IMG/VR virus record: IMGVR_UViG_3300016484_000582
Location: 1-24,786 of that record
Source of the DNA: a virus
Lineage: Duplodnaviria > Caudoviricetes
DNA: 24,786 nucleotides
Strand: one strand, 5' to 3'
The position numbers and the translations under genes were made by a program. Every line of letters begins with the position of its first letter. The first letter of the stretch is position 1. This document shows positions 86-11,370 of the stretch, one piece after another. The notes below the pieces were generated by a model. That model ran no database searches. It was not told the origin of the DNA and was given only the letters and a program-made list of their open reading frames with translations.

Positions 86-391
86 TCAAATTCTCCCCTC
101 GTCATTGGTTGCCGCTTGTGCAATAAACCGCCGTAATTGGTCAGCGGAAAAAGGGCTAAGCCCTGCTTTCTCCAAAGCGTGCTTGGCTGTCTCCCCACCG
201 CTCATAGCTAGCCCTGCGATGTACCGTGTACTCATCTCGTCTATGCCTAATTTATCGTGGTAATACACACACAACTCTGAATACAAAGCTTGCACAGCTT
301 CGCCTTCGTCGCCAAAGAGTTCATTGCACAAGATTTTTGTTTTGCTATCATGTTTTAAAGCCTCAGCCCATGTTTTTGATTTATCGCTCAT
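86..391 (-). CDS. hypothetical phage protein (101 aa)
   Basis: ORF packed tightly in the leftward operon; ends ...NDEGRI. Confidence 0.7.
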   Translation of the reverse strand: MSDKSKTWAEALKHDSKTKILCNELFGDEGEAVQALYSELCVYYHDKLGIDEMSTRYIAGLAMSGGETAKHALEKAGLSPFSADQLRRFIAQAATNDEGRI

Positions 392-710: not shown

Positions 711-929
711 TTAAATCCTCCCTTCGTCGTCGTTAGCGTATGGAAACTTTACCACTGGCGGGTAGATATAATCATGCGCGGCAAGCCAAGCATCGCCACT
801 ATCGCAAGTGCTCCGTGATGCCTGCACTAGACGGCCAAGCAAGGCTTTTGCTCGTTCAAGTTCCGTTCTCAATTTTGCCTGTTCGCGTAAAGCAAATTCC
901 AGTTTAATTTCTGCATTTTGATGGTTCAT
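711..929 (-). CDS. hypothetical phage protein with a coiled-coil N-terminus (72 aa)
   Basis: ORF with AAGGAG SD; ends ...NDDEGRI. Confidence 0.7.
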   Translation of the reverse strand: MNHQNAEIKLEFALREQAKLRTELERAKALLGRLVQASRSTCDSGDAWLAAHDYIYPPVVKFPYANDDEGRI

Positions 930-941
930 AATTGTCTCCTT

Positions 942-1484
942 TTAACCAAAAATTTCCCGAAACAGGTTTTCTTGGAATTTTTTTTCAGCATCAACCCAAG
1001 AAGCATCCCAAGCAGCTTGAAGAACTGTACCAAGTGCAGCATCCCACCAATAAATAGCATGAGCAGCAGCATAAGTAGCATAAACAACAACCCAAGCAGC
1101 ATTCTCACCTTGCTTAGCATAAGTAGCCTTATTAGCAGCATCAGCAGCAGCCTCTAAATCTGCCTTGGTGATTTTACCCGCTAGATAATCTTTTGCGGCT
1201 TGTATTGCTAATCGTGGACGTTTCTCATTAGGAAATTCCTTTTCAAAGATAAGCAGCGCGTTCTCCGCATATAGGATAGCAAACTGAATTATTTTTTCAC
1301 GGTGCTGGTCGAAAACAGTGCGAATGCACCACAGCGCATCACGCAAGCCGTTACTCTCTAGTATAGATACTAACGCTAAAGGTTCATCGTCGGCCTGTGC
1401 TTTGCCTAGGCTTGACAACAGTTTATCCAAACTTTTGTGTGTTACAAAAGCACTGATTTTATTAAGGGTTGTGTAAACGGTCAT
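942..1484 (-). CDS. Imm5-like / Ala-rich helical phage protein
   Basis: Motifs LESNGLRDALWC and FEKEFPNEKRPRLAIQAAKDYLAGKIT, then an Ala/Trp-rich tail, recalled as a common phage family. GAGGT SD. Confidence 0.65.
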   Translation of the reverse strand: MTVYTTLNKISAFVTHKSLDKLLSSLGKAQADDEPLALVSILESNGLRDALWCIRTVFDQHREKIIQFAILYAENALLIFEKEFPNEKRPRLAIQAAKDYLAGKITKADLEAAADAANKATYAKQGENAAWVVVYATYAAAHAIYWWDAALGTVLQAAWDASWVDAEKKFQENLFREIFG

Positions 1485-2655: not shown

Positions 2656-2685
2656 TTTGTTTATCCTTTCTACGTGGTTTAAAAT

Positions 2686-3522: not shown

Positions 3523-3534
3523 AAAGGAATCAAC

Positions 3535-3801
3535 ATGACACAGTGGCAACCTATTGAGACTGCACCGAAAGATGGATCAAAAATAATCCTATTTTATATA
3601 GATCGCAAAGGTAACAAGCGGACGGTTTTTGGACGGTGGATGACTGATGAACAAGCGGAAGATTGCGACCGCGATGGCGTAGGCCTTAAAGCTGGCTGGT
3701 ACGAAACCATCGAAAACTGGGGAGATTACTCCTTCGTAGCAATCTCTGGAGGTGAGCCAACCCAGTGGATGCCCCTTTTTTGGAAGGAGGAAGGAGAGTA
3801 A
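3535..3801 (+). CDS. DUF551-like phage protein, copy 1
   Basis: N-terminal WQPIETAPKDG and C-terminal PTQWMPL motifs. Confidence 0.8.
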   Translation: MTQWQPIETAPKDGSKIILFYIDRKGNKRTVFGRWMTDEQAEDCDRDGVGLKAGWYETIENWGDYSFVAISGGEPTQWMPLFWKEEGE

Positions 3802-3803
3802 CC

Positions 3804-4046
3804 ATGACACAGTGGCAACCTATTGAGACCCTCCCCAAGGACTGGAAACGAATTTTAGTTTTTGGGGTCAAAACTGGCGAACTTAGCGGAGAAGCTGAGC
3901 ACCCTGATATTTGGCTATGTGAAAACGAAATTGGTAACGGAACTTTTTGCATTGTTGGGTGCGAATATTATGGAGCGTGGGTCTATAACCCCACTCGCTG
4001 GATGCCCCTGCTACCACCACCAGCAATAATCGAAAAAGGAGAGTAA
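3804..4046 (+). CDS. DUF551-like phage protein, copy 2
   Basis: Start moved to ATG 3804 (MTQWQPIETLPKD...PTRWMPLLPPP), AAGGAG SD. Confidence 0.8.
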   Translation: MTQWQPIETLPKDWKRILVFGVKTGELSGEAEHPDIWLCENEIGNGTFCIVGCEYYGAWVYNPTRWMPLLPPPAIIEKGE

Positions 4047-4047
4047 T

Positions 4048-4302
4048 ATGACCATCCCCAACACCAGCCTAACCAGCATCATCGAGCGCATCGAACGCCT
4101 CAATGAGGACGTTAAATACCTAAAGCAAGACCTGAAAGAGGTTTTTGCAGAGGCTAAGGCGACAGGCTTTGACGTGAAAGTGTTAAAGCGGCTTGTCAAG
4201 CTTCGTGCCGCCGATCCTGTTGAAGCCGCAGAGCTAGCCGCCGTCCTTGAAGCCTACGCCGCCAACATAGGGCAACCAGAATTGCCGGATTTGTTTGTAT
4301 GA
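4048..4302 (+). CDS. gapR: GapR / DUF2312 (UPF0335) nucleoid-associated DNA-binding protein
   Basis: LTSIIERIERLNEDVKYLKQDLKEVFAEAKATGFDVKVLKRLVKLR matches the family pattern IERIERLEEEK...IKEVYAEAKxxGFDxK. Confidence 0.85.
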   Translation: MTIPNTSLTSIIERIERLNEDVKYLKQDLKEVFAEAKATGFDVKVLKRLVKLRAADPVEAAELAAVLEAYAANIGQPELPDLFV

Positions 4303-4866: not shown

Positions 4867-4873
4867 AATTAAC

Positions 4874-4902
4874 TTGATTTTAACGATAGATTAAAATAGT
4901 AT
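4874..4902 (+). promoter_or_regulatory. putative promoter of small RNA 1
   Basis: TTGATT N17 TAGTAT; the predicted +1 falls near the first G of the RNA closing stem. Confidence 0.55.
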
Positions 4903-4909
4903 GAACATT

Positions 4910-4978
4910 GGGGCTAGGGAGTGGTTGCCCGAAAGCCGTCAGAATTATCCTTTCACTGACCAGCACGCCCCTTTTTTT
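4910..4978 (+). ncRNA. putative C4/CI-like antisense small RNA 1 (three-way junction)
   Basis: P1 GGGGC/GCCCC, TA linker, P2 GGG/CCC with loop AGTGGTTG, GAAA linker, P3 GTCAG/CTGAC with loop AATTATCCTTTCA, then T7. Both loops are complementary to the repeated leaders at 2660-2680 and 8066-9339. Confidence 0.7.
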
Positions 4979-4991
4979 ATCCATAATTAAC

Positions 4992-5020
4992 TTGATTTTA
5001 ACCCACGCTTGGTATAGGGT
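4992..5020 (+). promoter_or_regulatory. putative promoter of small RNA 2 / replication gene
   Basis: TTGATT N17 TAGGGT, with the same geometry as unit 1. Confidence 0.5.
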
Positions 5021-5026
5021 TTAACC

Positions 5027-5094
5027 GTGGCTAGGTATTGCAAGACCGAAAGCCCGATCTTTCCCTCGTCGGATGGGTTGCCACATATTTTTTT
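5027..5094 (+). ncRNA. putative small RNA 2, structural paralogue of RNA 1
   Basis: P1 GTGGC/GCCAC, TA, P2 GGT/ACC with loop ATTGCAAG, GAAA, P3 CCGA/TCGG with loop TCTTTCCCTCG, then ATA-T7. Compensatory changes against RNA 1 occur in P1 and P2. Confidence 0.65.
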
Positions 5095-5116
5095 GACGAG
5101 GAACGACGGGGTTATT

Positions 5117-6010
5117 ATGTCTATTGAAATCATGTCGCTTGTTTTCAAGGCGGCAATTCCCACAACACAAAAATTTGTGCTGATTGCCATTGCCGACCAT
5201 TGTAATCAAGACGGCAAAGGTTGGCCGTCTATTCAGCGGATCGCATCCCACACCTCTTTACAAACACGGACAGTGTACCGAGCCATTCATGACCTAGAGA
5301 CATGGGGCTTTTTGTCCAAAAGTCACAATCCACACTCCAAATCAACTTTATACACTATAAACAAAGCTGTATTGCTAAAACATCTGACTAATGGTCAGAT
5401 GACACACGATCACCTGACTGACGATCACCCTGACACACGATCACCCTCACCCCTGACTGACGATCACCCTACCCCTGACACACGATCAGGGGTACCCCTG
5501 ACTGACGATCACCCTAACCATAATATTAACCATAAAGAACCACCAAAAGAACCGTCATTAGCAAAATTGCCTTTTGACGATCCGGTTATCGAAAAGCCTC
5601 CCAAGGTGAAAAAGCCTAGGGCAATGCAAATGCCCAAAGGGTGGAAGCCGCACGATGCTCACCGGGCTAAGTGTGCTTCCTACGGGCTTGATCCGGAAGA
5701 CCTAGCCGAAAAGTTTGAAAACTATCACGCATCAAAGGGAAGTTTGTTTGTTGATTGGGACAGGGCTTTTTTCACTTGGATAGGAAACGCTAAAGAATTC
5801 AACCAAAACCACAGAGGATCGAACAATGAAAACTATCGGAAACCTAGCAACAAAGCTCCTACAATCGACGGAGAAACAGGAGAAATCATCAATGACCAGC
5901 TTTCCGGCAACTCTTTTGGAAACAATCCCAAACGAGACCAAGGAATGGATAAAGCGCAACGAATCTACGCTGGTGCAATGCACCTCTATGAAAGCAAGAT
6001 ACGGCAGTAA
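5117..6010 (+). CDS. phage replication initiator with N-terminal winged HTH (HTH_36-like)
   Basis: MSIEIMSLVF...KFVLIAIADHCNQDGKGWPSIQRIA...RTVYRAIHDLE, internal iterons, and C-terminal EKFENYH...VDWDRAFFTWI. Start moved to ATG 5117. Confidence 0.85.
   Translation: MSIEIMSLVFKAAIPTTQKFVLIAIADHCNQDGKGWPSIQRIASHTSLQTRTVYRAIHDLETWGFLSKSHNPHSKSTLYTINKAVLLKHLTNGQMTHDHLTDDHPDTRSPSPLTDDHPTPDTRSGVPLTDDHPNHNINHKEPPKEPSLAKLPFDDPVIEKPPKVKKPRAMQMPKGWKPHDAHRAKCASYGLDPEDLAEKFENYHASKGSLFVDWDRAFFTWIGNAKEFNQNHRGSNNENYRKPSNKAPTIDGETGEIINDQLSGNSFGNNPKRDQGMDKAQRIYAGAMHLYESKIRQ
5400..5513 (+). repeat. six 15-bp iterons, probable replication origin inside the initiator gene
   Basis: TGAC(AC/TG)ACGATCA(CC/GG) starting at 5400, 5415, 5431, 5454, 5476 and 5499, followed by an A-rich tract. 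Same layout as lambda ori within O. Confidence 0.85.
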
Positions 6011-6955: not shown

Positions 6956-6988
6956 CCAAGTTTTTTAACTAAGAGAAAGGATTTAACC

Positions 6989-7399
6989 ATGTTTGAGCCA
7001 CAAATGACAGAACCAACAGACGAGTTTACTCTCTTGAAAGTTATCGCAGAAATCCGCCAGAAAACTGGTATAGGCGATAAAGTAATGCTGGCTGATTTAG
7101 CCGGTGTTCTGGCTGGGCTTATCCAAAACGGAGAATCGGCGATCGAGACCAATAAACAGCTTGTGAAGAAATTGAAAAAAGCAGAAGAATCCCTAGAAGA
7201 GGGTGTTGATTTGGTTTTTTATTTAGGAGAAAAGCTTCCAAGTTGGTCAGATGACACACCACTCGGCGGCATTGAGGAACGGTTTGAGAATTTATCAGAT
7301 TGGGCTTTAAACTGGATGGGCTTTCAAGGTGAAGGATTAAAACCGTCGCTAAGGCCGTTTTTATTGACACCAGACCACCCTAACCATATGCTCGGCTAG
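6989..7399 (+). CDS. hypothetical protein (136 aa)
   Basis: AGAAAGGA SD; contains IAEIRQKTGIGDKVMLADL. Confidence 0.75.
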   Translation: MFEPQMTEPTDEFTLLKVIAEIRQKTGIGDKVMLADLAGVLAGLIQNGESAIETNKQLVKKLKKAEESLEEGVDLVFYLGEKLPSWSDDTPLGGIEERFENLSDWALNWMGFQGEGLKPSLRPFLLTPDHPNHMLG

Positions 7400-7423
7400 G
7401 GTAGTAGCCAAAAGGATAGAAAG

Positions 7424-7642
7424 ATGCTCACAGAGGCTTTAAAACGTGAAATCGAGGTATTAAACAAGATGGCCAATGCAAGGGCTACACCCTATCACAT
7501 ATTACAGCGCAGAAATATTTACGTTTTCTGGTATCAAGCACCAGACGATGACAACACAGATGTTGAATTTTTTGATGAGAACTTGACCACAGGCCTAAAC
7601 CGCCTTATGCGGGAGATTTATGCCTATCCGGTGGTGTGGTAG
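7424..7642 (+). CDS. hypothetical protein (72 aa)
   Basis: AAAGGA SD; last gene of the rightward run. Confidence 0.65.
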   Translation: MLTEALKREIEVLNKMANARATPYHILQRRNIYVFWYQAPDDDNTDVEFFDENLTTGLNRLMREIYAYPVVW

Positions 7643-8068
7643 TTAAATCTGTTTGGTGCAGATTTCATGGCTGTGAGCTTGTCGTTGTTTTCGAGCCTTG
7701 TTTTCAGCTTCTGCACTGCCCCATGCAAAAATAGCTATCATTGTAAAAATTGAAAAAACTACAAAATTTATAAAAACAAATGTCGATAGTTCTTTGTGAA
7801 AATTACTAATTTTGTATTTATTATCATCCGCCCATAGACAGTACGGTAAAATTGGTATGCTTAAGCCAATAAAAAGAATGGACAGTAGATTTATTTGTTC
7901 CGTAACCAATAAATAAATCGGGAAAGCAGCAGATAAAAACAAAGATATTCCAATTAAAGTATCTGCGTGCCACAAATAATCTTTAACAAAGAAAACAATG
8001 TTTTTTAATGTCCATAAAAATATAATGGAAAGCACTGTTATTGTTACAATTGTAATTGCTGTTTGCAT
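7643..8068 (-). CDS. membrane protein with about four TM segments, last gene of the inverted island
   Basis: Four hydrophobic stretches; preceded by the repeated leader AAAGGATTAACATCATG. Confidence 0.75.
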   Translation of the reverse strand: MQTAITIVTITVLSIIFLWTLKNIVFFVKDYLWHADTLIGISLFLSAAFPIYLLVTEQINLLSILFIGLSIPILPYCLWADDNKYKISNFHKELSTFVFINFVVFSIFTMIAIFAWGSAEAENKARKQRQAHSHEICTKQI

Positions 8069-8072
8069 GATG

Positions 8073-8228
8073 TTAATCCTTTAATTTGTGGGTTAATTTA
8101 TACTCGGCCATGCAAACTGCAACGTATGAGGCTACCTTTGCCGCTACGCATGGAGGCAGGATATAGTCCATGCGTTTATAGCCTAGCTTTTTCAGTTTTG
8201 CTTTATACCGCTGTTGTTTAGTTTGCAT
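8073..8228 (-). CDS. small basic protein (51 aa), possible ribbon-helix-type DNA-binding protein
   Basis: Not in the ORF track. MQTKQQRYKAKLKKLGYKRMDYILPPCVAAKVASYVAVCMAEYKLTHKLKD; start overlaps the upstream ORF end and the stop lies in the next leader. Confidence 0.55.
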   Translation of the reverse strand: MQTKQQRYKAKLKKLGYKRMDYILPPCVAAKVASYVAVCMAEYKLTHKLKD

Positions 8229-8298
8229 AAAGCACCGTTGCTGTTAAGATGAGCGTAAAATTAAGAATTGAGGCCATGATGTGAATTGCGAGGCGCAT
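8218..8298 (-). CDS. 26-aa hydrophobic peptide
   Basis: Not in the ORF track. MRLAIHIMASILNFTLILTATVLYAN, preceded by the leader CAACCACAGAAAGGATTACTACTATG. Confidence 0.55.
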   Translation of the reverse strand: MRLAIHIMASILNFTLILTATVLYAN

Positions 8299-8358
8299 AG
8301 TAGTAATCCTTTCTGTGGTTGTGAAATGATAGAGTACAGAGTGAAGGTTAAGATGGTG

Positions 8359-8604
8359 TTATCCGATACAGATTTCTTTTCCATCAATTTCAAGGTCGAT
8401 TGTTAAATCGTCTCCCCAGTTGGAAAACTGTTTAATTATTTCGGCTTTGTCCTTTTCGGATAGGGTAACATAATAATGATAGTGGCCTAACGTTCTTTTA
8501 GTGTTTGTTTTTTTAAAAGATATTTTGCCTAAAACATTAACGATTTCCGCGTTCTGTATGATTTCTAGGGCTTCTTTGATAGGGTAAGATTTGAATACGG
8601 TCAT
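8359..8604 (-). CDS. hypothetical protein (81 aa), inverted island
   Basis: ORF preceded by ACCACGAAAGGATTAACATCATG. Confidence 0.8.
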   Translation of the reverse strand: MTVFKSYPIKEALEIIQNAEIVNVLGKISFKKTNTKRTLGHYHYYVTLSEKDKAEIIKQFSNWGDDLTIDLEIDGKEICIG

Positions 8605-8634
8605 GATGTTAATCCTTTCGTGGTATGAGGCATA

Positions 8635-8680
8635 ATTGCACCATGCTACACCCCCCGGGGGAGGTGTAGGGTGCTACAAT
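8635..8680. other. GC-rich bulged intergenic hairpin
   Basis: GCACC-atg-CTACACC-CCCC/GGGG-ga-GGTGTAG-GGTGC; no adjacent U-tract on either strand. Confidence 0.75.
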
Positions 8681-8789
8681 CTAAGCTAGCCAAGAATACC
8701 GTTGATATATATTCGTGCGATCGAAACCCATAACGATAGCTAAATAACCGGGGCGATTATCCAAATAGGCTAATCTGTGCTTTTAACAT
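8681..8789 (-). pseudogene. island slot with a full leader but only a 10-codon ORF; possible frameshifted 35-aa gene
   Basis: ATG 8789 reads MLKAQISLFG*. Removing one A from TTAAAAG gives MLKHRLAYLDNRPGYLAIVMGFDRTNIYQRYSWLA*, ending at 8681. Confidence 0.4.
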
Positions 8790-8825
8790 GATGTTAATCC
8801 TTTCGTGGTTGGTTGCGTTATTTAA

Positions 8826-9053
8826 TTAATCTTTTATGGCTTCGTATGCGTATTCATCACTGCCGTTGCAGACACAAATTTTAAAGCGATTTACCCTTTC
8901 ATTTTTGCCTTTTTGACCGCGCGCCGCGTCATCGCGATAGCTTTTTAAAATGTCTTTTAATCCGTACATGGCTTTAAAATAAGAAACATTTGTGTACCCG
9001 GTTTTGCTGTATTTGCCGTGAACCCCGATTTTATAAATCGTGTACGTTGTCAT
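8826..9053 (-). CDS. hypothetical basic protein (75 aa), inverted island
   Basis: Start moved to ATG 9053 (MTTYTIYKIG), after the leader CAACCACACGAAAGGATAAACACCATG. Confidence 0.8.
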   Translation of the reverse strand: MTTYTIYKIGVHGKYSKTGYTNVSYFKAMYGLKDILKSYRDDAARGQKGKNERVNRFKICVCNGSDEYAYEAIKD

Positions 9054-9094
9054 GGTGTTTATCCTTTCGTGTGGTTGCTTATGAGTGTAATTCT

Positions 9095-9125
9095 GAGGCC
9101 AGCTTATTCGCTGGCCTCGCTTTTT
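9095..9125 (+). terminator. hairpin GAGGCCAGC/GCTGGCCTC followed by GC-T5 on the + strand
   Basis: Perfect 9-bp stem with a 6-nt loop; the T-tract is on the strand opposite the island genes. Confidence 0.55.
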
Positions 9126-9312
9126 AACTTGCCAACACATGCCACTGATTTAACTCCTGCTTTGTTAGGAGTAAAATGCCCATAGGGTGTTTGATATTGT
9201 AAGCTTTGATTTTTTTCACGATTTTCTGTGTCTCTTCCCAGATCATATCCCCTGTGTTTGTTGGGTGAAAAAAAGCTGCGTTGTAAGCGTTGAGTAATTT
9301 CTTTGCGGTCAT
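9124..9312 (-). CDS. hypothetical protein (62 aa), first gene of the inverted island
   Basis: ORF preceded by CAACCGCACGAAAGGATTAACATCATG and a strong promoter. Confidence 0.8.
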   Translation of the reverse strand: MTAKKLLNAYNAAFFHPTNTGDMIWEETQKIVKKIKAYNIKHPMGILLLTKQELNQWHVLAS

Positions 9313-9347
9313 GATGTTAATCCTTTCGTGCGGTTGGTTATGAAAGC

Positions 9348-9376
9348 AGTATATTGGTATCCGGGATACTTGTCAA
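9348..9376 (-). promoter_or_regulatory. near-consensus sigma70 promoter with a palindromic operator in the spacer
   Basis: TTGACA (9376-9371) N17 TATACT (9353-9348). Inverted repeat GTATCC-G-GGATAC at 9357-9369. Upstream A-tract. Confidence 0.85.
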
Positions 9377-9898: not shown

Positions 9899-11370
9899 CT
9901 GTTACAATAACGACTGCCGATCTGTTAAACATCGATCGGGAATATTGCCGTCGATCGTTAGCCAATTTTGCCAAGCGCGCATGGTTGCAGCTTGAGCCTA
10001 CCACGCCGCTTAAATGGGGATGGGCACTTGATGCCATTTGTGAGCATTTGGAGGCCGTAACTGACGGAAAAATAAACAGGTTATTGATGAACGTACCGCC
10101 GGGCAGCATGAAGTCGCTGCTAACTGGCGTCATATGGCCGGCTTGGGAGTGGGGCGCAAAAGGTATGCCGTCCATGCGGTACGTTGGCACAGCGCATGAG
10201 GAACAGCTAGCCATCCGTGACAGCCGTCGTTGCCGCGATCTCATCAAGTCTCAGTGGTATCAGGAGCTTTGGCCACTGGAGCTACTGGCCGATTTAGACG
10301 GCAAAAGAGAATTTGGGAATGTGCACAAAGGTGTAAGACAGGCAAGGGCTTTCACGAGCATGACAGGTGTTCGCGGTGATAGGGTGATTATTGACGATCC
10401 CATTAGTGCCGATGCTGCTAACAGCGATGCTAAGCTTGAGGCTGCTAAGATCGCGTTCACTGAGTCGATCCCTACGCGCGTCAACAATGACAAGTCCGCT
10501 ATCGTCATCATTATGCAGCGACTTAATGAACGTGATATAAGCGGCGTCATCCAAGACATGGGCTTACCTTATGTGCACTTGTGCATCCCCATGCGCTATG
10601 AGCGAGCGAGGCACTGCACCACGTCCATAGGGTGGAGTGACCCCCGCACTGTTGAGGGCGAACTAATGTTCCCCGATAGGTTTTCGGATGAACAAGTGCG
10701 CGAGCTTGAAAAATCGCTTGGCACATACGGTTCAGCCGGGCAGTTACAGCAAAGGCCTGCACCGCGCGGCGGCGGCATTATCAGCACGGCATGGTTTAAA
10801 TTCTGGACGATGCTACCTCAACTCGAGTATCGCTTTATCACAATCGACACGGCGCAAAAGACAGGCCAGCAAAACGATTACAGCGTCATGCAGTGTTGGG
10901 CGCGTTCAATTGTTGGGCAAGCGGTCATGATTGACCAGGTGCGTGGCAAGTGGGAAGCCCCCGAATTGCTGGTGCAAGCCCGCGCCCTTTGGCTCAAGCA
11001 TCAAGGGGACATGCGAGCGCCTGCCCTTAAAGCACCATTGCGTGGTATGTACGTTGAGGACAAGGTGAGCGGTACGGGGCTCATCCAGACACTGCGGCGT
11101 GAGGGCTTGCCCGTCTTGGCTGTCCAGCGCAACAAGGACAAGATAAGCCGCGCTTATGATGCCGCACCGTTTATCGAGTCTGGCAACGTCATACTACCGC
11201 AGGATGCGCCGTGGCTGTCGGATTTCTTGGGCGAAACGTCATCATTCCCGGCCGGGGCACACGATGACCAGCTTGACCCAATGTTTGATGCTATAGGCCT
11301 TGTACAAAGGACTCAATCGCAGACAAGGCCGCAAACATTTATACCCTTGCCAATTAAAAACAAATGGTGA
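9895..11370 (+). CDS. terL: terminase large subunit
   Basis: Walker A NVPPGSMKS, Walker B VIIDDP, nuclease IDTAQK and HDDQLD. Confidence 0.95.
   Translation: MTVTITTADLLNIDREYCRRSLANFAKRAWLQLEPTTPLKWGWALDAICEHLEAVTDGKINRLLMNVPPGSMKSLLTGVIWPAWEWGAKGMPSMRYVGTAHEEQLAIRDSRRCRDLIKSQWYQELWPLELLADLDGKREFGNVHKGVRQARAFTSMTGVRGDRVIIDDPISADAANSDAKLEAAKIAFTESIPTRVNNDKSAIVIIMQRLNERDISGVIQDMGLPYVHLCIPMRYERARHCTTSIGWSDPRTVEGELMFPDRFSDEQVRELEKSLGTYGSAGQLQQRPAPRGGGIISTAWFKFWTMLPQLEYRFITIDTAQKTGQQNDYSVMQCWARSIVGQAVMIDQVRGKWEAPELLVQARALWLKHQGDMRAPALKAPLRGMYVEDKVSGTGLIQTLRREGLPVLAVQRNKDKISRAYDAAPFIESGNVILPQDAPWLSDFLGETSSFPAGAHDDQLDPMFDAIGLVQRTQSQTRPQTFIPLPIKNKW

Follow-up and report, generated by a model that had tools for sequence, protein, structure and literature searches.

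Side-by-side int-alpA-like RNAs in a freshwater phage: a probable leader of the replication initiator and a candidate two-loop trans-acting copy

Two copies of an int-alpA-like three-way-junction RNA stand side by side in a fragment of a freshwater phage genome (the window, meaning the whole 24,786-nt stretch of DNA that was analysed). The downstream copy, unit 2, is of the ordinary family type, and the upstream copy, unit 1, is the new part. On the best reading of the sequence, unit 1 would be a duplicated leader turned trans-acting two-loop translational repressor. Because both of its loops match the starts of six distant genes, unit 1 is likely a free RNA that silences them together. We favor, with somewhat better than even confidence, a scheme in which unit 2 would damp translation of the replication initiator while free unit 1 would pair with six leftward leaders and shut off their translation.

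The fragment, which is 68% complete, encodes P22-like portal and coat proteins, an ERF recombinase, a GapR-like protein, RusA and an HTH_36 initiator. Both units are placed between the RusA gene (end, 4866) and the initiator gene (start, 5117). No antirepressor was found among the 41 window proteins scanned, the gene 3´ of unit 2 being the HTH_36 initiator. A leftward cluster of small ORFs without known function lies behind repeated leaders (7643-9376, minus strand), and neither the proteins of this cluster nor ORF 6989 gave a significant family or fold match. Other local features are exact 18-mer repeats within the initiator gene (5413/5452/5497; window 5412-5517), likely origin iterons; a 34-nt start common to two adjacent ORFs (3527-3560 and 3796-3829, 91% alike), which is a duplicated N-terminus; and an Imm5-like protein with an Ala-rich low-complexity tail (942-1484, minus strand). 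The features of the two units, assigned from sequence except where another basis is given, are as follows.

4910..4978, plus strand: unit 1, int-alpA-like three-way-junction RNA with a T7 tail, predicted to stand alone (fold, model match)
4920..4927, plus strand: loop 1 of unit 1, not a palindrome; its complement forms the 5´ half of the leftward leaders
4943..4955, plus strand: unit-1 loop 2, anti-Shine-Dalgarno, complementary to GAAAGGAT
5027..5084, plus strand: unit 2, canonical member, with palindromic loop 1 (5037-5044) and loop 2 (5058-5072)
5094..5101, plus strand: first cis site complementary to unit-2 loop 2
5104..5111, plus strand: second unit-2 cis site, at the initiator ribosome-binding site
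5117..6010, plus strand: gene of the HTH_36 replication initiator, which unit 2 is predicted to target in cis

The sequence-only reading had described compensatory stem changes between the copies (GGGGC/GCCCC versus GTGGC/GCCAC; GGG/CCC versus GGT/ACC), and these are present as described. The folds of the units alone are unremarkable in stability (z -0.36 and -0.43), so structural support comes from homologues. We collected 82 viral loci with a scaffold pattern and at least 119 with a looser one, and a stricter pattern matched 105 loci across bacterial genomes of several phyla; 164 distinct pattern hits gave 140 members that passed a pairing filter, with 24 dropped. In an alignment of 89 rows, pre-filtered for pairing and with the core fixed by the search pattern, the stems show 276 two-sided changes versus 88.9 ± 8.0, and slid controls give at most 49, which bears out the expectation that homologues would have covarying stems. 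A model built from these 89 rows, which exclude the window copies, recovers both (38.4 bits, E 1.6e-7; unit 1, 19.2 bits, E 0.008). The two copies had been taken for a small array; there is only a pair, a third candidate being a weak 22-nt match (E 0.77). Among 15 matches in a tandem-copy scan of viral contigs there was one true tandem pair, an int-alpA-type pair in another phage (L180:7956-8114, minus strand) in which each copy has its own cis sites. The suggested link to HTH_36 initiators did not survive, as the family is not tied to them. A promoter-like site with TTGACA also precedes ORF 7424 (7364-7424, plus strand) and is followed by GGCTAGGGTAG, which is the start of the scaffold only; both are retained in relatives.

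The closest catalogued motif is int-alpA (RF02996; Rfam type 'Gene; sRNA'), which reportedly originates from Weinberg et al. (2017) and of which the window copies are divergent relatives. Under its model unit 2 reaches 18.5 bits, short of the gathering threshold of 35.8, unit 1 gives no match, and the whole window has no Rfam match at gathering score. The int-alpA three-way junction with its CUAG and CGAAA strands is nonetheless present in the window copies, and among 18 hand-picked homologues 12 match the RF02996 model, five of them above gathering score; below the cut-off, yet with the junction and these bridging homologues, the copies are filed as int-alpA-like relatives rather than formal members. 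They differ from int-alpA in a longer loop-2 arm and in other 3´-side junction bases, and unit 1 differs further in having neither a cis target nor a palindrome. The open-access literature yielded no functional study of int-alpA, no mention of RF02996 and no paper on control of translation by a dimeric phage RNA with a palindromic loop; one table listing of int-alpA was found in the accessible text of PMC12370729. A search of the cultured-phage collection found no relative.

What the loops do can be read from the family. In 85 of 117 distinct cases the 54 nt that follow an element include a complement of at least 6 nt to its loop 2 (8.3% for non-cognate pairs), and in 76 of 117 they include twin sites (6.3%); 11 of the 117 have no good cis site. 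Twin-site spacing is 11-16 nt in 65 of 81 cases, and an ATG lies 15-60 nt downstream in 128 of 140 members. Thus the proposal of a constant scaffold with variable, specificity-carrying loops is upheld, in that the stems covary and loop 2 matches its own downstream sites. Loop 1 gives no family-wide signal against the cis downstream region (3.26 versus 3.24) and is instead often self-complementary: a 6-nt palindrome occurs in 22 of 60 distinct sequences versus 2.2 ± 1.4 in shuffles, and a 4-nt palindrome in 39 of 60. The common loop-1 palindrome and the loop-2 twin sites together suggest that ordinary members may form a kissing-loop homodimer that would offer two loop-2 copies to one leader. 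Four loci (L005, L010, L030 and L045) have their downstream twin sites replaced, and their close kin L007, L040 and L049 retain them.

Unit 2 follows this type, its loop 2 having two downstream sites. The computed loop-1 self-duplex is -5.9 kcal/mol for unit 2 versus +3.0 for unit 1; a heterodimer through the two loop 1s was tried and rejected (-1.1 kcal/mol). In related populations a different palindrome occupies unit-2 loop 1, a stem pair shows a compensated change, and neither the twin sites nor the gene behind them is the same as here. A serious competitor, which we rate below an even chance, is that unit 2 and the family work as a purely intramolecular two-site switch between decoy and ribosome-binding site, with no dimer. 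Indeed, in the cis fold of the read-through unit-2 leader (-29.5 kcal/mol) loop 2 occupies the ribosome-binding site, and twin sites persist in 18 of 37 non-palindromic members; such a switch would leave unexplained the excess of loop-1 palindromes, the swap of palindrome for palindrome and the weak association of twin sites with palindromes (58 of 80 palindromic members; p 0.02, uncorrected for kinship).

Unit-2 loop 2 by itself also has two possible trans sites.

93..104, minus strand: possible site for unit-2 loop 2 only, at a leftward gene start, -19.4 kcal/mol
718..729, minus strand: possible site for unit-2 loop 2 only, at the start of ORF 709-398, -19.4 kcal/mol

Loop-2-only matches are shuffled among relatives, so we give these little weight as evidence. 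Two leftward ORFs (86-130 and 711-760, minus strand) end in a nearly identical peptide, and these ORF ends form ribosome-binding sites that match unit-2 loop 2. In G006, G007, L440, L442 and L443 the first leftward-cluster leader has, in place of the unit-1 site, GACGAAG, which the common allele of the unit-2 loop matches; in the complete G006 the GACGAAG leader matches that phage's own element over 9 nt, and L442 has no element.

Unit 1 is built differently. A T7 tail had been ascribed to both units; that of unit 1 abuts the stem (4972-4978), but that of unit 2 starts 3 nt later (5088-5094). With this offset, and with such a T run in only 14 of 140 family members, unit 2 is probably a leader rather than a free RNA. 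No gene lies between unit 1 and the next promoter and unit 1 has no downstream target; the terminator scan flagged nothing at its T7. A scan for T-run-ended members returned 15 loci, 14 of which match the model, mostly with cis targets, and no convincing target set emerged for the orphan-like members among them (L446, L454 and L458). L446 and L448, two contigs that share a dataset number, carry near-identical elements (~10007-10069, minus strand), one of which has twin cis sites while the other is followed by a T run and has no cis sites.

The candidate targets of unit 1 are minus-strand leaders in which a loop-1 complement is followed, after 0-3 nt, by GAAAGGAT and then by the start codon. 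With a two-part rule whose thresholds were set post hoc (at least 8 nt to loop 2 and at least 5 nt to loop 1 within 0-4 nt), the window contains exactly six sites, all at leftward translation starts, five in the cluster and one at the ERF gene. These sites and the predicted promoter of the cluster are the following.

9348..9376, minus strand: near-consensus promoter of the leftward cluster, TTGACA-17-TATACT (activity inferred)
9320..9336, minus strand: two-part site in the first leftward-cluster leader (gene 9312-9124), one G-U pair
9061..9077, minus strand: two-part site, leader of the ORF starting at 9053
8797..8811, minus strand: two-part site, leader of the 10-codon ORF starting at 8789
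8612..8624, minus strand: two-part site with a 5-nt loop-1 half, leader of ORF 8604-8359
8306..8321, minus strand: two-part site, leader of the 26-codon ORF starting at 8298
2663..2679, minus strand: two-part site, leader of the ERF recombinase gene (2655-1777)

Across 3.36 Mb of partly redundant loci the same rule found 13 contexts, comprising six leaders of close relatives, three that had been fetched by the leader pattern and four background matches; within the window, the loop-1 half is present at six of the 12 other TCCTTTC sites. Only 23 of 65,536 8-mers match the leader flanks as well as loop 1, in a test that used a hand-made start list (row 83 is one base off and row 9497 has no start codon) and that, since leaders in this group are C/A-rich anyway, is weakened to about 2%. 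Equally good matches came from five of 280 same-letter permutations and from none of 60 family loops. The two halves run in opposite order in the RNA and in the target, so one inverted copy cannot explain them. The exact unit-1 loop-1 pattern occurs in none of 444 fetched loci, a leader-motif scan returned four unrelated loci with no RNA, and a metagenome scan for promoter plus scaffold returned four loci, three with a single element and none with unit 1. Nor did a search for two-loop targets in 15 other records, orphans included, give a clean set.

The two copies had been read as re-targetable RNAs, of which the second might address other phage genes or a competing element. One copy does appear to address other phage genes, but the copies differ in kind and are not equivalent guides, and the strongest evidence for an address elsewhere belongs to the first copy, unit 1. 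The suggestion of a competing element stands insofar as unit 1 could address related phages.

Comparison with relatives, which carry one element or none and no detected unit 1, shows that gain of the site at leftward leaders and its loss at a rightward leader both accompany unit 1. Five of six leftward-cluster leaders pass the two-part rule here versus none of 10 distinct leaders in relatives; all are within one lineage, so these counts are not independent, and five of the 10 comparison leaders are from L443, whose contig ends before the unit-1 position. That position is covered in G006 (complete), G007, L439, L441 and L442 and not in L436, L440 or L443. The opposite change is seen in the rightward leader that comes first beyond the replication module.

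6966..6982, plus strand: leader of rightward ORF 6989, loop-2 half (6975-6982) kept, loop-1 half (6966-6973) changed

This leader carries the full 8-nt loop-1 complement in seven of nine relatives. The window's copy has four substitutions relative to them, all inside those eight of 42 aligned positions (by a hand calculation, 70 in 111,930 by chance), and one gap just upstream of the loop-1 site. The predicted loop-1 duplex is -3.1 kcal/mol here versus -11.1 in relatives, and the best two-loop match (8/8 and 11 nt, summed -25.5 kcal/mol) sits in the relatives and not in the window.

Freshwater populations add a second comparison, in which run X19 gave nothing at the locus and no RNA run is among those listed as containing it. 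Contigs of the public runs X7, X16 and X8 span the tandem pair, and no change is listed at 4910-4943 or 4948-4961 in X2, X7 and X16, where changes near contig ends (7 of 23 in X7 and 4 of 21 in X16) are unlisted. Unit-1 loop 1 and the loop-2 core are thus constant in three runs from three studies, and unit-2 loop 1 varies there. In three runs 9331 C>T turns the first leftward leader into a perfect match. The common unit-1 variant 4947 A>C (X2, X3 and X7) loses one pair with GAAAGGAT, and no leader change matching this variant is among the changes listed; as no compensatory change between unit 1 and target was seen, the support consists of conservation and of presence and absence. The leftward cluster itself is a recombining cassette array, with joints in related populations from 8313 to 9356, 8313 to 8624 and 9073 to 9356, and the reshuffled cassettes retain TGGTTG after the loop-2 half at the new joints.

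These data bear on an alternative origin, in which unit 1 would be what remains of a duplication, or else additional 5´ sequence on the initiator transcript, and its matches would reflect C/A-rich AAAGGA-type leaders and homogenization of cassettes. Relatives without unit 1 also have C/A-rich leaders; the two-part site is present in phages without unit 1 and hence is independent of the RNA; the cassettes do recombine at repeated leaders; and neither covariation of unit 1 with its targets nor a second two-loop orphan among the 15 records was seen. Against such an origin, the loop order is opposite to that of a copied antisense strand and a single inversion would not suffice, loop 1 of unit 1 stays constant across three studies while the neighboring loop 1 changes, and both the gain in leftward leaders and the loss in the rightward leader track unit 1. 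We therefore consider it unlikely.

A main target outside the window is less likely still. Unit 1 might be aimed mainly at the first gene after the replication module in co-infecting relatives, the phage's own copy having escaped, as the position of the best two-loop match and the loss of the loop-1 half from the window's orthologous leader would suggest. However, six of the phage's own genes carry the site, which pure competition would not need; moreover, the scheme presupposes shared hosts, and the target proteins have no known function. We also give little credence to the view that pairing is real and leads to termination, processing or activation rather than to blocked initiation. Precedents exist in phage RNAs that act on leaders, termination by P4 CI RNA and activation by IsrK (both in the accessible part of PMC4825925), but unit-1 loop 2 covers the Shine-Dalgarno sequence itself, and the target leaders are unstructured (0 to -1.6 kcal/mol) and so offer no inhibitory fold to open. 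Finally, that the units guide a nuclease or recombinase bound at the TA/GAAA junction is very improbable: the junction is invariant in the alignment, partly since the search pattern fixed it, but no partner protein was found for what had been proposed as a protein-binding motif, the annotated neighbors of the units include no candidate effector and vary between relatives, and the matches lie at ribosome-binding sites rather than at DNA breaks or joints.

The reading of unit 1 as a translational repressor acting in trans would require its transcription. Each unit is headed by an identical 18-mer, as originally noted, and an exact 18-mer repeat occurred in none of 100 block shuffles of the window. 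The predicted promoter elements are as follows.

4867..4884, plus strand: 18-mer copy 1, with a TTAA-N7-TTAA box (4869-4883) that encloses the predicted -35 (4874-4879)
4880..4894, plus strand: overlapping second TTAA-N7-TTAA box, unit-1 promoter only
4897..4902, plus strand: predicted -10 of unit 1
4985..5002, plus strand: 18-mer copy 2, with a TTAA-N7-TTAA box (4987-5001) and predicted -35 (4992-4997)
5015..5020, plus strand: predicted weak -10 of unit 2

A -10 at 17 nt had been claimed for both promoters, and the spacing is right in each case (TTGATT-17-TAGTAT and TTGATT-17-TAGGGT), but TAGGGT is a weak hexamer. A consensus promoter scan did not list the unit-2 promoter and listed that of unit 1 in a different register; promoter-like sites in the window are not in excess (7 versus 5.3 ± 2.4).

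TTAA-N7-TTAA is the CtrA consensus as stated in the accessible text of PMC9437464, which describes both repression and activation of CtrA-controlled phage promoters. The unit-1 and unit-2 promoters hold three of the four exact boxes in the window, and boxes are not in overall excess, with four in 24.8 kb and at least four in 11 of 100 shuffles. The box is retained at the unit promoter in eight of 10 relatives examined, three of these without the RNA, and occurs in only three of 137 upstream regions family-wide, which ties it to this lineage and to the promoter of the replication module. The box spacer, identical everywhere, contains the -35, so common descent alone could preserve the box. L439, L441 and L442 have the TTAA-N7-TTAA promoter at 4081 and lack an int-alpA-like RNA downstream of it, and a second box with a different spacer is common to six relatives. 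The GapR-like protein has its named homologues in Alphaproteobacteria, and its gene points to that class as the probable host group; host CtrA control of both promoters is plausible. As at the CtrA-controlled promoters in that source, clustered TTAA-N7-TTAA boxes occur in a phage with an alphaproteobacterial GapR-like gene; here, by contrast, the boxes precede RNA elements and number only four in 24.8 kb.

Taking the fold, the family, the complementarities and their loss and gain between related phages as observed, we infer transcription from both promoters, release of unit 1 at its T7, loop–mRNA pairing and repression. A promoter-plus-leader block was most likely duplicated, after which the upstream copy would have lost its gene and its palindrome. 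Termination or processing at the T7 would free the unit-1 RNA, whose loops would read a split address on the early leftward leaders and pair side by side over the ribosome-binding sites, hindering ribosome loading at six leftward genes. In this way a second, direct contact with mRNA would have replaced the dimer contact in unit 1, and the rightward gene with the same address would escape. Unit 2 would damp translation of the replication gene directly 3´ of it, and host CtrA may time both promoters. The geometry of the three-way junction would place the two loops side by side in space. The accessible part of PMC3258123, on junction families, gives no rule for loop geometry. A more elaborate version, which we regard as rather improbable, is that a CtrA-switched monomeric two-loop RNA would silence both the phage's own early cluster and a gene of co-infecting relatives, its own copy of that gene having escaped through mutation of the loop-1 half alone. 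If true, this would be RNA-based discrimination between self and non-self among phages, on a scaffold whose two loops can be programmed independently, and a dimer-forming translational brake would have been duplicated and reprogrammed to a split address of 15-19 nt.

At this locus an ordinary int-alpA-like form naturally adjoins a retargeted one, an escape allele is at hand, and the mechanism (dimer versus cis switch, one versus two loops) is therefore testable by simple reporters. If our reading is right, it shows a route from a cis leader to a multi-target trans regulator and provides a scaffold of 65 nt in which both loops can be programmed; it may further tie host cell-cycle control to phage early-gene shut-off via RNA.

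Among known phage RNAs, C4 recognizes its target through two loops and is cut from a precursor by RNase P, and we know of no palindromic loop in C4 or in CI. According to the accessible parts of the respective sources, C4 of P1/P7 controls ant expression (PMC8201110) and P4 CI RNA pairs with two sequences, seqA and seqC (PMC4825925). Like these, the present elements are small phage RNAs with proposed pairing control of the phage's own genes, but the window has no match to the Rfam C4 model, and the complementarity is to several distant opposite-strand leaders and to the initiator gene rather than to an icd/ant operon. IsrK of Gifsy-1 produces, from one locus, a short terminated RNA and a read-through leader and activates its own mRNA, as given in the accessible part of PMC4825925. 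A short terminated RNA and a read-through leader from one locus are likewise predicted here; in contrast to IsrK, which has no Rfam match in the window, unit 1 is predicted to repress other mRNAs.
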